The notes below the pieces were generated by a model that saw only the letters and a program-made list of their open reading frames with translations, was not told the origin of the DNA and did not search any database. The position numbers and the translations under genes were made by a program. DNA of 64,000 nucleotides from a virus (Duplodnaviria > Caudoviricetes), in the IMG/VR virus record IMGVR_UViG_3300028591_000109, positions 32,001-96,000 of that record. One strand, written 5' to 3'. Below, one piece after another: positions 15,433-33,900 of this stretch (the first letter of the stretch is position 1; the number at the start of each line of letters is the position of its first letter).

Positions 15433-15873
15433 ATGGAAAATTGGATTTTAGTTAAAAACCTGGAAGGCAAAGATATAAAAGTTCGCCAGAGACGGGCTTA
15501 CGGTGACATCTTTGTTGACGAGCAAGGTAAGGAATACCTGGCGAATGTTCTTGACTTTACCGGCGCACGTCTTGCGATACCCGACTTCAACGAACAGAAT
15601 AAGGAGAGCCTGAATGCGCTGAAGGATATGATGAAGTCGATGGACGCCAAGGCTATTGCCGACCACAAGGCCGTGATTGCCGAGTTCGAGTATTGGAGAA
15701 AGCTGCGTAGTGAAATTTTCATGGAAATGTATCGCGACCACTTGGCCAAAAACGGCAGCAGAATGTCTGAGGACGATCTGCTGAACAAGGCGAAGTACCT
15801 TGTCAATCAGCTATGGCAACAAGACCAGGATTTCATATCTGACAAAAAGGTGTTTCATATTCCTGTCAAATGA
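15433..15873 (+). CDS. hypothetical protein
   Basis: 146-aa ORF, ATGA overlap with the next gene. Confidence 0.7.
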   Translation: MENWILVKNLEGKDIKVRQRRAYGDIFVDEQGKEYLANVLDFTGARLAIPDFNEQNKESLNALKDMMKSMDAKAIADHKAVIAEFEYWRKLRSEIFMEMYRDHLAKNGSRMSEDDLLNKAKYLVNQLWQQDQDFISDKKVFHIPVK

Positions 15874-17516
15874 ATAAAAAATTAACGCGCATGAAACAAA
15901 TAACTGCATTATACATCGACCTGTTCTGCGGGGCAGGCGGCACGTCGAGCGGCGTGGAGTATGCGCGGCTGGACGGGAGGAAGTGCGCCGAGGTGGTGGC
16001 GTGCGTCAACCACGACGCGAATGCCATCAAGTCGCACAAGGCAAACCATCCGCACACGCTCCACTTCACCGAGGACATCCGCACACTGGAGCTGTCGCCG
16101 ATGTTGAAGCATCTGGAGAAGAAGCGCCGGCAGTACCCCAAGGCAAAGGTGGTGCTGTGGGCGAGCCTTGAATGCACGAATTTCTCGAAGGCGAAGGGCG
16201 GACAGCCGCGCGATGCCGACAGCCGGACGCTGGCCGACCACCTGTTTCGCTACATCGAGGCGCTGCAGCCCGACTATATCCAGATTGAGAACGTGGAAGA
16301 GTTTATGTGCTGGGGTGCGCTCGACGAGAACGGCAAGCCCGTGAGCCGCGACCAGGGCAGCGACTACCTGCGGTGGGTGAGACAGGTGCAGGCCTACGGC
16401 TACGACTTCGACTGGCACGTGCTGAACGCTGCCGACTTCGGGGCCTACACAAGCCGTAAGCGCTTCTTCGGGCTGTTTGCTAAGAAGGGACTGCCGATAG
16501 CGTTCCCACATCAGACGTATGCCAAGCAGACCGTGGCTTTTGCGTCGCAGGCCGTCGGCAACCTCTTCCCCGACCAATACAAGCCGTGGCGGGCCGTGCG
16601 CGAGGTGCTCGACCTCGACGACGACGGCGAGAGCATCTTTGTGCGCCGCAAGCCGCTATGCGAGAAGACGCTGGAGCGCATCTATGCCGGACTGGTGAAG
16701 TTCGTGGCGGGAGGCAAGAAGCAGCACGAGGCGTGGATATTGAAGTACAACTCGATGAACCAGCAGAACCACCACAATGCGCCGTCCATCGACGAGCCGT
16801 GCCCCACGGTGGCTTGTCAGAACAGACTCGGACTGGTGAAGTGCCAGTTCCTCTCGAAGCAGTTCAGTGGCGACCCCGACAGCAAGAACATCGACATCGA
16901 GCAGCCCGCCGGCACCGTGACCACCATCGACCACCATGCCTTTGTGACGGCATACTATGGTAACGGATTCAACTCGTCGATTGACAGTCCGGCGCCCACC
17001 GTTACCACCAAGGACCGGATTTCGCTGGTAACGACAAAGTTCATGGATAACCAGTACGGCAAGAGTAAGCCGTCATCTATCGACGGGCCAGCGCCGACGC
17101 TTGTCAACAATCCCAAGCAGAAGATTGTGTCGGCGCAGTACCTGATGAACCCTCAGTACCAGAGCAACGGCGGCAGCATCGACAACCCTTGCTTCACGTT
17201 GATAGCGCGGATGGACAAGATGCCGCCTTATCTGATTACCACCAAGGAGGGTGCGGTGGTCATCGCCATCTATGAGAGCGACAGCCCGTGGACGCGCAAG
17301 GTGAAGGAGTTCATGGCCGCATACGGTATCGTTGACATCTGTATGCGTATGCTGAATATCGGCGAGCTGAAGCGCATCATGGGCTTCCCCACCGACTACG
17401 TGCTCATCGGCACCCAGGCCGAACAGAAGAAATACATCGGCAATGCCGTGGAGGTTAACATGAGCCGCGTGCTCTGCGAAGCCCTATGCAGGAAAATTAA
17501 GAATATGAACAAATAA
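15870..17516 (+). CDS. C5-cytosine DNA methyltransferase with repeated variable region
   Basis: DLFCGAGG (I), SLECTNFS (IV variant), IENV (VI), TSRKRFF (VIII), MGFP (IX), IGNAV (X). Confidence 0.92.
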   Translation: MNKKLTRMKQITALYIDLFCGAGGTSSGVEYARLDGRKCAEVVACVNHDANAIKSHKANHPHTLHFTEDIRTLELSPMLKHLEKKRRQYPKAKVVLWASLECTNFSKAKGGQPRDADSRTLADHLFRYIEALQPDYIQIENVEEFMCWGALDENGKPVSRDQGSDYLRWVRQVQAYGYDFDWHVLNAADFGAYTSRKRFFGLFAKKGLPIAFPHQTYAKQTVAFASQAVGNLFPDQYKPWRAVREVLDLDDDGESIFVRRKPLCEKTLERIYAGLVKFVAGGKKQHEAWILKYNSMNQQNHHNAPSIDEPCPTVACQNRLGLVKCQFLSKQFSGDPDSKNIDIEQPAGTVTTIDHHAFVTAYYGNGFNSSIDSPAPTVTTKDRISLVTTKFMDNQYGKSKPSSIDGPAPTLVNNPKQKIVSAQYLMNPQYQSNGGSIDNPCFTLIARMDKMPPYLITTKEGAVVIAIYESDSPWTRKVKEFMAAYGIVDICMRMLNIGELKRIMGFPTDYVLIGTQAEQKKYIGNAVEVNMSRVLCEALCRKIKNMNK

Positions 17517-22809: not shown

Positions 22810-23880
22810 ATGACACATGCATCAGTATTCAGCGGCATCGGCGGCCCGGAGGTGGCGGCAAGCATGCTCGGATGGGAGAACCTGTTCCACTGCGAGATCA
22901 ATCCCTTCGGTCGCGCCGTGCTCGACTACTGGTACCCTAACGCAGAATCGTATGAAGACATCACAAAGACAGACTTCACAGAGTGGCGCGGACGCATCGA
23001 CGTGCTCACAGGCGGATTCCCCTGCCAGCCGTTCAGTTTTGCCGGGAAGCGACGAGGCGCGGATGATGACCGCTACCTCTGGCCTTTCATGTTTAAGTGC
23101 ATCGACCAGATCAGACCCACTTGGGTCGTTGGTGAAAACGTTGCTGGCATCGTCACGATGGTCGAGCAGGGCCAGACTATTGACATGGCGGACGCGCCAA
23201 CTTTGTTCGACGAGGACGGTGCCGTTCACCGATACGAATACCGCAGCACCTTCACCCTCGAACGAATCTGCCGTGACCTCGAAACGCACGGATACGATGT
23301 CCAGCCGGTGCTTATTCCAGCTTGTGCCGTCGGAGCCCCTCACAGACGAGACCGAGTGTTCATCGTCGGACGTAGAATTTCTGCCGACACCGAAAGCGTC
23401 GGACAACTCGACGGGGATAGGCAAGAACGAAGTGCCATACTTGGACGGTCACATCTGGAGGCGACCCAACGGGGTGTCGATGCGACTGAGTTCTATGGCA
23501 AATCGGAATCTCCTGCCGACACCTCAGATGCAGGACTACAACACGGGCATCAGTCAGAAGGCGAAGGCTGCAAAACTGGAGCGATACAAGGACAGGGGCA
23601 TAATCCCTTCTGGGACGTATATGCTCAGGCAGATGGCTATCGAGGGGAAACTGCCGAAGCCGAATGGTCTGGTTGTGCCGGAAACGGACGGTGGCAACAC
23701 TTCCCGACTGTCTCCCCTGTTCACCGAGGAAATGATGGGCTTCCCTTTGATGTGGACTGCCTTACCATACCTTTCACCAAATGGCGCAACGAGGCCCTCA
23801 AAGCCTACGGCAACGCCATCGTCCCGCAAGTGATGTACGAGATATTCCGCGCTATCGAGCAAGTAGAAAACGAAAGATAA
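22810..23880 (+). CDS. C5-cytosine DNA methyltransferase, alpha chain (lacks motif IX)
   Basis: FSGIGG (I), GGFPCQPFS (IV), ENV (VI), HRRDRVF (VIII), YGNAIVPQV (X). Confidence 0.92.
   Translation: MTHASVFSGIGGPEVAASMLGWENLFHCEINPFGRAVLDYWYPNAESYEDITKTDFTEWRGRIDVLTGGFPCQPFSFAGKRRGADDDRYLWPFMFKCIDQIRPTWVVGENVAGIVTMVEQGQTIDMADAPTLFDEDGAVHRYEYRSTFTLERICRDLETHGYDVQPVLIPACAVGAPHRRDRVFIVGRRISADTESVGQLDGDRQERSAILGRSHLEATQRGVDATEFYGKSESPADTSDAGLQHGHQSEGEGCKTGAIQGQGHNPFWDVYAQADGYRGETAEAEWSGCAGNGRWQHFPTVSPVHRGNDGLPFDVDCLTIPFTKWRNEALKAYGNAIVPQVMYEIFRAIEQVENER
22952..23833 (+). CDS. overlapping +1-frame ORF: putative methyltransferase beta chain (motif IX/TRD); start uncertain
   Basis: Frame open 22817-23833; LPTPKASD and LLPTPQMQD repeats and RLSPLFTEEMMGFPLMWT. 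Confidence 0.7.
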   Translation: MKTSQRQTSQSGADASTCSQADSPASRSVLPGSDEARMMTATSGLSCLSASTRSDPLGSLVKTLLASSRWSSRARLLTWRTRQLCSTRTVPFTDTNTAAPSPSNESAVTSKRTDTMSSRCLFQLVPSEPLTDETECSSSDVEFLPTPKASDNSTGIGKNEVPYLDGHIWRRPNGVSMRLSSMANRNLLPTPQMQDYNTGISQKAKAAKLERYKDRGIIPSGTYMLRQMAIEGKLPKPNGLVVPETDGGNTSRLSPLFTEEMMGFPLMWTALPYLSPNGATRPSKPTATPSSRK

Positions 23881-30900: not shown

Positions 30901-33900
30901 CATCATTGCCACCATCCGCGAGAAGCGCAACCTGGGGCAGGCCACCAAGGCCGAGGAAGACCAGCTGGCCGACCTGACGAAGAAGCTGCGCTCGCTGAAG
31001 TTTGAGCAGGATAACGTGAACATGTCGCAGGAGAAGATGCGGACGCTGATAGAGACACCTGCCAACGCCGTGAACCTCGACGAGCTGCGCGCCGCCATCA
31101 AGCGTGCCGACGGACAGCTGCGCCAGATGGAGCAGTCGCTCGGCCAGAACAGCTCGGAATATAAGCGTTTCGCCGAGCAGGTGCGCAACGCCAAGAACGT
31201 GATGAAGGAGATGGAGGGCCAGGCCAAGGCCAGCGCCACCGCCTGGGAGAAAGCCTTCAACCGCCTGAAGACCTACGTCGTGATGTATATGGGCTTTAAT
31301 GAGGTTTGGCAGAAGGTGAGCAATACCGCCCGCGACCTCATGGACCTCTCCGACCGCATGGGTGAGGTGCGCAAGACCACGGGCTTCACCGCCGACGAGG
31401 TGGGACGGCTTAGCGACAATCTGACAAAGCTCGACACGCGCACAAATTTGACGGGACTGATGGAGTTCAGTTCGCTGGCAGGTAGTGTCGGTTTGAAGAC
31501 ACAGGAAGCCGTGCAGGGATTCACCGAGGCTGCCAACATGCTTTCGGTGTCGCTGCCCGAACTGGGAAAAGAGGCAAGCCGCACGCTGATGAAGATCGCC
31601 GACGCGACGGGCGACCTGGAGAAGAACGGCAATAACGTCCGCGAGACGCTGGAGCGCGTGGGTTCTACGGTCATCGCCCTGCGTGCCAACTCGGCTGCTG
31701 CCGCCGGACCTATCACCGACTTTGTGAGCCGCGTCGGTGCGGTAGGTGCTCAGGCGGGCATCTCGATTGACCAGATAGCCGCATTGGGTGCTACGGTCGA
31801 TGCACTGGGTGGTCGCGTGGAGATGTCGGCCACGGCTCTGTCGCGAATGATACCGGCTATCAGAAATAATACGTTTGAGGTGGCGCAAGCCATCGGCATG
31901 ACCGAGAAGCAACTGAAACAGATGTCGGGTATCGACCAGATGGTGGCCGTGTTCAAGGCGCTGCACGACTCGGTGAAGAACTTCGACATGACCACCGAGG
32001 AGGGCATGAACGCAGCCGCTGATGCCGTGGAAGGGATGCTGGGACGCAGTGTGTCGATGCAGGACGTGATGAAACAATTGAATCAACAGGGAGCTCGTGC
32101 GGGCATCGTGTTCGGTCTGCTGTCGCAGAACGTGGACACGCTGGAGAAGCAGTTGAAGATTGCTACCGATGCCTACCGTGACAACACTGCCCTGATGGCG
32201 GAGTATAACAAGATGAACGACACGACCGCCGCCAAGTGGGAGCGACTGAAAAACCAGCTGGAGGAAGCGTTCGTTTCCGATTCCATACAGCGTGGACTGG
32301 GCTCCCTTATTGACATGCTGCGCGGACTGGTGGACTTCATCACCGGCAATGTAACAGGTGTGCTCCAAAGCTTGCGCACTGCATTCCTTATGCTTGCAGC
32401 CGCTGCGACGGTCTATAGGATAGAGCTTGGCAAGATGATTTTCGTGGAAAGTCTGTCGGGCCTTAGCAATCTTAAAAAGGCTCTCGTAGGCGTAAAGGAC
32501 ACTATTCTGCTGACGGCTATGTACACCAAGGACTACATAGCACTGAAATGGAAACTCATCTTCGCGCATGGCGCTGAAGAGAAAGCGGCCATCAAGGCAA
32601 AGATAGCTACGCTGGGACTGAACAAGGCACTGACTGCTAACGTATGGATGGCGGTCGTTGCAGCCATAGGGATGCTGTTGCTGAAGCTGTACCAATTTAA
32701 CAAGGCTGCCAAGGAGGCTGCCGCAGAGACAGGACGTTTCAATCAGCAGATAGCCGACGAGCAGAAAGCCCTTAACAAGTTGTTTGAGCCGCTGAACAGG
32801 TCGAACATGGCACAGGAAGAGCGACTGAAGCTCATCAACGAAATCAACTCGAAGTACGGCAAGTACCTGGGTTATATGCTCAGTGAGACATCTTCGGCCA
32901 TTGCACTGGCCGACGCCCACGCCCTGATAGCCAAGCGCATCAGGGAGGAAGCCTACGAGAAGCGTATAGCCGAGAAGGAGGCGAAGATACAGGATGAGCA
33001 CAGCGAGGACGTGAACGCAGCCTACACCAAGATAACGGAGCGTGTACGTGGCAGCGTCAGGGGCGGTGCCAGCGCACAGGAGATTGCCGACGTGCTGAAA
33101 GGCATCGTTGACAACCGACTGGGCAGCATCAAGTATGCCTACGACGATTCGGACAATATCTTCAAAGCCCGTACCAACTACTACCTTGATCCAAAGATTA
33201 AGCAGGCCATCGACGGCGGCATCGAGCGGCTGATTGTTGACGGCAAACTGTCGCGTGACAACGTGACGCTGATTCAGAAGGCAGTATATAAATATACGGT
33301 AGAAGCCCACAGCCAGCACAAGGATATCATGAACCAGACATCGAACCTACGCTCTGACCTTCGCGGTGTGCAGAGTGCCATCAAGGTTGACCTGGCCAAC
33401 AACCTGAATACACTTGTCAGCAGGGTAGCCAGTTCGGTAGGCAATGCTGTGAGGAATATCCGCCAGCAGCAACAGCCACAGCAGAACGTGCCGCTGATGC
33501 TGCAGCAGCCACAGGGACAGGGTAGCAGACTGCCAAGTCTGTTTGGTGGAGGTCAGCAGGGCGGATGGCAGGCACCGTGGCAACAGGGCCGCGAGACTAC
33601 ACCGCAGCAGCAGGCGGCTCCGAAGGGATGGAAGCCTAATATAGACAAAAAGGACACAGAGGCGGTTCGCCAGTTCGTGCAAGACCAGGAGGCACTGCGC
33701 AGCGCACTGAATGCCAGCGGCAATCAGATAGACGAAGCACAGCGCAGGGTGGCTGAGTCGTGGCTGCTGACGGATGCCGAACTGAAGGAATACAAGAAGA
33801 TCGTGGAGAAGGCCGACCGTGGCCCCGGCGGCAGCAACCACAACCCTTACGGCGACTACAACAAAGTGACCTCGCCCTACAAGGAGTGGAACGGCAACGA

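Follow-up and report, generated by a model that had tools for sequence, protein, structure and literature searches.

A phage locus that most likely encodes the catalytic and DNA-recognition halves of one cytosine methyltransferase in two overlapping reading frames

The closest described system to the one considered here is M.EcoHK31I of E. coli HK31, a C5 methyltransferase for YGGCCR that is made of two polypeptides (Lee, Kam and Shaw 1995, as cited in PMC2836561 and PMC3404938). Its beta chain is read from another frame entirely within the alpha gene, and activity requires both chains; the target recognition domain (TRD) stays in alpha and beta contributes motif IX only (PMC2836561, PMC3404938), with N-terminal residues of beta mattering for the association of the chains (PMC2836561). 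A further two-subunit enzyme, M.AquI (CYCGRG), is divided in linear order, such that one subunit has motifs I-VIII together with a portion of the variable region and the other has the rest of that region and motifs IX-X (PMC3404938). Here we describe a locus at positions 22810-23880 of a 64,000-nucleotide stretch of DNA from a gut phage (Duplodnaviria; Caudoviricetes), referred to as the window, which corresponds to positions 32,001 to 96,000 of the 141,567-base IMG/VR record IMGVR_UViG_3300028591_000109. Most likely, the two frames of this locus specify two proteins, one the catalytic and the other the DNA-recognition half of a single cytosine methyltransferase, and we put at roughly 80% the probability that these form a heterodimeric orphan 5-methylcytosine (m5C) DNA methyltransferase whose two chains come from overlapping frames of one mRNA. 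To our knowledge, DNA phages and bacteria seldom have long same-strand gene overlaps whose two products are both conserved and work together, and the sole methyltransferase precedent that we know of is the one E. coli enzyme described in 1995.

Two long open reading frames (ORFs) are listed on the same strand of the locus, one of 356 aa at 22810-23880 (+), which we call alpha, and one of 338 aa at 22817-23833 (+) in the +1 frame, and 11 stops interrupt the third frame from 22812 to 23879. Alpha matches phrog_363 at E 2.5e-69 and PF00145 at E 4.6e-35, with PF00145 positions 1-119 falling on alpha 1-119, and a search of Protein Data Bank (PDB) sequences returned M.HaeIII and M.HhaI. Alpha 149-190 is aligned to HaeIII 122-163 and alpha 326-350 to HaeIII 297-321, so that HaeIII 163-297, the approximately 135 residues which hold the TRD and motif IX in that enzyme, have no counterpart in alpha; the segment carrying motif X aligns to the motif X region of M.HaeIII, its match being non-significant when the segment is taken alone (domain score -0.8). 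An AlphaFold2 (AF2) model of alpha, made with an alignment of 36 homologues (alignment A2), mostly has block-mean predicted local distance difference test (pLDDT) scores of at least 85 over residues 1-194, with lower values at the active-site loop and in a few other places; the helices of motif X (H322-333 and H337-355) are folded as well, at block-mean pLDDT 55-91. When this model was used in a Foldseek search, M.HhaI and M.HaeIII were matched over only about 195 columns. Judged by these matches and by the predicted structure, alpha is a C5 methyltransferase large domain that lacks the small domain: between motifs VIII and X, where a single-chain enzyme would have its TRD and motif IX, it is predicted to be disordered over about 110 residues and shows no alpha-frame selection. 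This bears out the initial annotation, which had read motifs I, IV, VI, VIII and X in the main frame and no recognisable TRD or motif IX.

The +1 frame may supply what alpha is missing. It is indeed open over the 338 codons from 22817 to 23833, as first described, but the likely start of its product, beta, is 22952 and not 22817, and from there beta lies entirely within alpha, on the same strand and in another frame, as in M.EcoHK31I. Where alpha has catalytic motif IV, the +1 frame reads DSPASRS. The LPTP repeats and the motif-IX-like segment that had been reported for this frame are both found in its translation, as FLPTPKASD, LLPTPQMQD and RLSPLFTEEMMGFPLMWT (23705-23758), and the motif-IX-like stretch is present in the +1 frame only. 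The canonical motif IX has the pattern R-L-T-P-x-E-x-x-R-L-Q-G-F-P, and RLSPLFTEEMMGFP shares its length and anchor residues and sits just before motif X, which makes it a candidate for the motif IX of the enzyme, in this case supplied by beta. Of the two frames that the initial annotation would have compared with PF00145, only the main frame is recognised by that family, the +1 frame giving no match at E up to 1. The +1 frame does match phrog_1008, named 'DNA methyltransferase', at E 1.8e-20, and because all three parts of beta match this family separately, phrog_1008 is a family of such +1-frame ORFs. The features of both chains are collected in Table 1.

Table 1. Features of the alpha and beta frames, with positions in the window
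Feature	Position	Strand	Description and basis
Alpha coding sequence	22810..23880	+	356 aa; C5 DNA methyltransferase large domain by PF00145, phrog_363 and AF2: motifs I-VIII, disordered tether, motif X
Upstream +1-frame ATG	22817..22819	+	7 nt after the alpha ATG; possible alternative beta start
Motif I FSGIGGP (AdoMet-binding loop), alpha	22825..22845	+	FSGIGG is residues 6-11; translation, PF00145 match
Beta coding sequence	22952..23833	+	293 aa, +1 frame, nested entirely within alpha; conserved N-terminal segment, two LPTP modules, candidate motif IX
Conserved beta start codon	22952..22954	+	Alpha Tyr TAT plus G of the next codon (S-Y-E-D-I-T-K); 142 nt inside alpha
Motif IV GFPCQPFS with catalytic Cys, alpha	23014..23037	+	Residues 69-76; invariant across 36 sequences (alignment A2)
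Beta N-terminal conserved segment	23069..23356	+	About residues 40-135; overlaps alpha motifs IV-VIII; both frames selected
Motif VI GENVAG, alpha	23131..23148	+	Residues 108-113; E109, N110 and V111 invariant in A2
Motif VIII PHRRDRVF, alpha	23338..23361	+	Residues 177-184; aligned with M.HaeIII motif VIII region
Beta module 1 (FLPTPKASDNSTGIGKNEV...)	23378..23509	+	Unique among 75 loci; present in database protein P0009
Alpha tether, predicted disorder	23392..23730	+	Residues 195-307, pLDDT < 50; alpha-frame reading of the putative TRD of beta
Beta module 2 (LLPTPQMQDYNTGISQ..., type 'I')	23510..23704	+	Includes a degenerate KLPKP unit; common to L004, L026 and L028
Motif IX candidate RLSPLFTEEMMGFP, beta	23705..23746	+	Most conserved beta stretch; pattern and position
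Motif X GNAIVPQV, alpha	23809..23832	+	Residues 334-341; G334-V341 invariant in A2; beta stop codon (23831-23833) within

Set beside M.EcoHK31I, whose beta chain does lie in another frame inside the alpha gene as the initial annotation had stated (PMC2836561), the locus has the same nesting of beta and the same distribution of motifs, with I-VIII and X in alpha and IX in beta, the last by pattern only. The proposal that the two share one dual-coding design therefore holds in so far as the missing small-domain elements are found in the nested +1 frame, but the split itself is different: M.EcoHK31I keeps its TRD in alpha, whereas here, comparing the systems by description, beta carries the whole variable region plus motif IX, selection on that region acts in the beta frame, and in its place alpha has a disordered tether. 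Beta here also starts before motif IV, which gives an overlap of 882 nt, and M.EcoHK31I is part of a restriction-modification system whereas the gene in the window is an orphan in a phage replication module. With M.AquI the locus shares a natural split in the variable region and a division of recognition and catalysis between two chains; unlike in M.AquI, where the smaller subunit has motifs IX-X, the frames overlap and motif X remains with alpha. A family-wide description of this layout was not found in full-text literature searches.

Evidence that neither frame is open by accident comes from related viral loci, of which 80 were fetched at 41-82% alpha identity; requiring motifs IV and X in one frame left 74 usable sequences, namely 73 loci and the window. 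Both frames are open in all 74, the +1 frame running free of stops from motif IV to motif X for 242-439 codons and the +2 frame for at most 34-91. When the synonymous codons of alpha were shuffled and stops were counted in the beta frame from the beta start to motif VIII, between 1.2 and 5.7 stops were expected in each sequence and none was observed in any of the 74, with the +2 frame behaving as expected. In the converse test, where synonymous codons of beta were shuffled across the TRD-IX stretch, the alpha frame had no stops in 75 of 75 sequences against a mean of 5.9 expected, and the third frame had 9.56 observed against 9.47 expected. For the window alone, the expectation was 2.05 beta-frame stops from the beta ATG to motif VIII, with 0 seen (P(0) = 0.064), and 6.2 alpha-frame stops across TRD-IX, again with 0 seen, none of 1000 shuffles of beta codons being stop-free. 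Since the stops expected from shuffling are absent, both frames are held open, each where the other carries conserved protein. The layout extends to bacterial genomes, where a survey of 80 loci, one genome per species, recovered it under strict layout criteria in 55, among them complete genomes from cultured Bacteroides, Segatella, Prevotella and Sphingobacterium. Carriers include the cultured Segatella copri HDE04 and Bacteroides phage BKO1-TP3. The initial annotation had staked its idea on homologues keeping both frames open, and they do so in all 74 usable phage sequences and in these 55 Bacteroidota loci. An internal control is provided by the second C5 methyltransferase of the same phage (15870-17516, +, 548 aa), a conventional one-chain enzyme whose motifs IX and X share its reading frame; no +1 ORF of at least 100 aa is present there, and the two-frame layout is thus not an effect of genome composition.

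The frame under selection changes along the locus. Nucleotide differences were counted at positions 1, 2 and 3 of the alpha codon in 172 sequence pairs of 70-97% nucleotide identity, and before the beta start they amount to 0.105, 0.103 and 0.284, respectively, with 0.102, 0.068 and 0.194 over motifs IV-VIII. The corresponding values are 0.354, 0.263 and 0.249 in the TRD and 0.178, 0.069 and 0.134 in motif IX, followed by 0.079, 0.095 and 0.277 in motif X. Alpha codon position 1 is beta position 3 and is the most variable of the three in both the TRD and motif IX; from this periodicity, purifying selection shifts so as to act on the beta frame in the TRD and motif IX, and on the alpha frame again at motif X. 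A comparison of the window with L004 points the same way, identity over module 2 and motif IX being 0.89 in the beta frame and 0.74 in the alpha frame, with 8, 6 and 22 nucleotide differences at beta positions 1, 2 and 3.

Upstream of the variable region, where beta overlaps motifs IV-VIII, some 95 codons are under constraint in both frames. The pairwise divergence of alpha 4-fold sites reaches a plateau of about 0.40 in this overlap against about 0.75 outside it, and the diversity of these sites is 0.60 before the beta ATG and 0.18-0.37 over the beta N-terminal segment, with values of 0.18 at beta residues 61-80 and 0.20 at beta residues 101-120; several alpha synonymous sites in the overlap are fixed in 36 of 36 sequences. 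This constraint is far above what the avoidance of stops would need and matches invariant beta residues in alignment A1. Because alpha synonymous sites are constrained across motifs IV-VIII, the N-terminal part of beta looks like a real protein segment, and AF2 predicts within it a helix (56-66) and two strands (77-85 and 116-126) at block-mean pLDDT 55-77 over residues 51-130. By analogy with the beta chain of M.EcoHK31I, this segment may dock onto alpha.

The start codon of beta is itself conserved. Of the 74 sequences, 73 have a +1-frame start codon 68 nt upstream of the Pro codon of motif IV, as ATG in 72 and as GTG in L004, where TGT at the Tyr site gives GTG; in the remaining sequence, L016, the following G is missing and there is an ATG 2 codons downstream. 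The Tyr codon is TAT in 35 of 36 members of the non-redundant set, 34 of those 35 having ATG at the exact site, and the other Tyr codons of the same genes are TAT in 173 cases and TAC in 185 (48% TAT). In most loci a +1-frame stop occurs 27-51 nt upstream of the conserved start, and the frame is open back to 22817 only in the window and L007/L008, a stop intervening in most other loci. At 22810-22819 of the window, and otherwise only in L007/L008, a single AT-rich leader precedes both the alpha ATG and, 7 nt from it, the +1-frame ATG (ATGACACATG), and a longer beta of 338 aa could be made from the same landing site in this phage. In every locus the stop of beta is placed at -11, +10 or +22 nt relative to the G codon of the motif X GNA.

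From these observations we infer that beta is translated, that it binds alpha and that the pair has the activity and specificity of a DNA methyltransferase. In the mechanism that we propose, beta would be initiated at its own internal ATG (22952) and terminated inside motif X, and would consist of a conserved N-terminal segment for docking, an LLPTP array for target recognition and motif IX. The alpha tether would then be a mere alpha-frame reading of the variable region of beta, and its sole requirement would be to remain stop-free, so that the ribosome gets to motif X. Alpha and beta would associate non-covalently to give a two-lobed C5 methyltransferase, and this enzyme would methylate the phage DNA and shield it from host restriction.

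Several findings weigh against such an enzyme. Searches of Pfam, NCBIfam and PDB sequences gave no match to beta, and neither the single beta sequence nor a beta profile matched PDB sequences at E up to 10. The assignment of motif IX draws on pattern and position and on an hhalign comparison with the single-chain methyltransferase of the phage, which covered 14 columns only, at motif IX, and was non-significant (E 0.11). Beta alone folds poorly in AF2 (mean pLDDT 54). Before the beta ATG no Shine-Dalgarno-like sequence was seen, only an A-rich stretch, and internal initiation there is therefore an assumption. A subgroup of loci (L106-L111, L115 and L131, from Bacteroides xylanisolvens XB1A, B. 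hominis and others) has ATA at the conserved position with both frames open, such that beta must start elsewhere in these loci. In Bacteroides faecalis (L141:1416-2535) beta is intact at 348 aa and alpha stops in the tether and again before motif X, which makes it a copy in decay or else a variant whose beta has outlasted its alpha, and in a relative of this locus, L003 (MT835926.1), alpha also stops before motif X. With the broken alpha of the L141 group and the ATA subgroup of Bacteroides, the layout is not uniform across the family.

The survival of beta beside an interrupted alpha in the L141 group is what might be expected if beta were a real overprinted protein with some other role, such as DNA binding or anti-defence, instead of a methyltransferase subunit; the same can be said of its lack of significant similarity to any solved or curated methyltransferase domain, and of an N-terminal segment and LLPTP modules that have no known function. 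We nevertheless consider this unlikely. What alpha misses is exactly the TRD and motif IX; the part of beta under selection lies in precisely this gap, and its end is never more than 22 nt from motif X in the loci compared. The best-conserved stretch of beta agrees with the pattern of motif IX, and a precedent for two chains exists in M.EcoHK31I.

A different way of joining the two frames would be programmed ribosomal frameshifting, either by a +1 shift after motif VIII and a -1 shift before motif X or by a single shift that yields a fusion of I-VIII, TRD and IX. Two shifts would restore the canonical order I-VIII, TRD, IX, X with a spacing from GFP (IX) to GNA (X) that would look normal, and some database proteins are in-frame fusions, for example P0178 and P0025, the latter with I-VIII, TRD and IX in one frame. 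Frameshifting, however, needs neither an open +1 frame for about 135 codons upstream of the TRD, yet this is kept in all 74 loci, nor an open alpha frame through the TRD, which is likewise kept in all loci, and it leaves unexplained the conserved +1-frame ATG with a stop just upstream. The distance from motif VIII to the TRD and the position of the beta stop differ among loci, with no conserved shift site, and no slippery heptamer was seen by eye at the IX/X boundary of the window. As for the fusion proteins, they are mostly singletons, and several change frame after motif IV, where the one locus that was read has a poly-G tract; taken together, these points make frameshifting very improbable. 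No clear single-chain family with the LPTP region in frame emerged, the PF00145-bearing matches being frame-switch chimeras; an Atlas lead pointed to a PF00145 cluster from Actinomycetota (score 0.85).

That the +1 ORF is a non-functional by-product, whether a shadow ORF of composition or a single-chain gene broken by two compensating frameshifts, can draw on the 56% GC of the window, which lowers stop frequency, and on a stop-free +1 stretch over IV-VIII that is in the window only marginally unlikely (P(0) = 0.064, as above), but it is scarcely credible given a layout kept at low identity in 74 phage loci and 55 bacterial genome loci, chance-level stops in the third frame, a periodicity that shows purifying selection in the beta frame and a conserved beta start codon.

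If the locus does encode a methyltransferase in two chains, the LLPTP modules are probably its target-recognition part. The variable region is a mosaic: the 75 sequences contain 240 modules headed by LLPTP, which group into 24 families that recur in varied orders, for example H-C-L-A, E-E-A-I and B-J-C-F, the window being X-I. Tandem exchangeable modules in the variable region are known from the orphan multispecific m5C enzymes of Bacillus phages, M.SPRI, M.Phi3TI and M.H2I, which are single chains and whose TRD modules have been experimentally tied to specific targets. The LLPTP array, with its 24 module families in many orders, recalls these tandem TRDs in its arrangement. It is tempting to go one step further and to see in the locus a double-coding gene, with the catalytic core and a beta docking domain sharing about 95 codons, in which the LLPTP units are interchangeable target-recognition cassettes of a multispecific enzyme; we offer this tentatively and would not bet on it at even odds. 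If true, specificity would evolve by cassette shuffling, and an unusual rule would apply, no cassette being allowed a stop in the alpha frame.

The layout is the rule in a large family of gut Bacteroidota phages and prophages, as sampled in the 74 phage loci and 55 species genomes. A phmmer search of the full library with the C-terminal 154 residues of beta (E up to 0.001) returned 810 beta-like cluster representatives, and among the matches listed the beta match usually stops at or near the C-terminus of the protein. In the sources searched, most beta-like proteins are without a Pfam domain or are named 'hypothetical protein', and there was no sign in these sources that beta-type ORFs are recognised as nested in a PF00145 gene. 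If the two-chain enzyme is real, standard annotation, which usually records one frame, misses or misnames one of its subunits, structure predictions of the annotated protein contain a meaningless 'linker', and specificity cannot be predicted from the annotated chain because the recognition part is encoded in the second frame. As a natural example of codon sharing by two proteins the locus is a clean test case, with both frames constrained over IV-VIII and one at a time elsewhere, and it illustrates the evolution of a modular recognition array that has to satisfy two frames.

Individual loci depart from the common layout in other ways. In L003 (L003:354-1847 of MT835926.1, a human faecal phage contig) alpha has an intein-like insert that ends in ...VVHN just before the catalytic CQPFS and is matched by PF14890 at E 1.8e-5, below the curated cut-off, and the ATG that opens the beta ORF of this locus lies within the 3' end of the insert. 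At a point after motif IV, five distinct database proteins (P0024, P0044, P0130, P0172 and P0231) pass from the alpha frame into the beta frame, and the ENA contig that encodes P0231 has a G7 tract directly after motif IV (L084:520-560), where G8 would leave alpha intact; this could be phase variation or a homopolymer sequencing error, and there is no G-tract after motif IV in the window. Four loci (L052, L061, L070 and L071, at about 1500-1535) have, within alpha motif I, a TAG codon in frame (THGSLFSGI*VGGFD), to either side of which the coding sequence is conserved, and in these the TAG may be read as a residue or the genes may be broken.

The locus is set in a block of replication and nucleotide-metabolism genes, with a nucleoside deoxyribosyltransferase-like gene and a single-stranded DNA-binding protein (SSB) upstream and a replication-initiation-like gene downstream, and no restriction enzyme family was matched among the flanking ORFs scanned. 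The second methyltransferase of the phage, at 15870-17516, has a long variable region with five S-I-D-x-P-x-P-T repeats, and on account of these repeats it may be multispecific.

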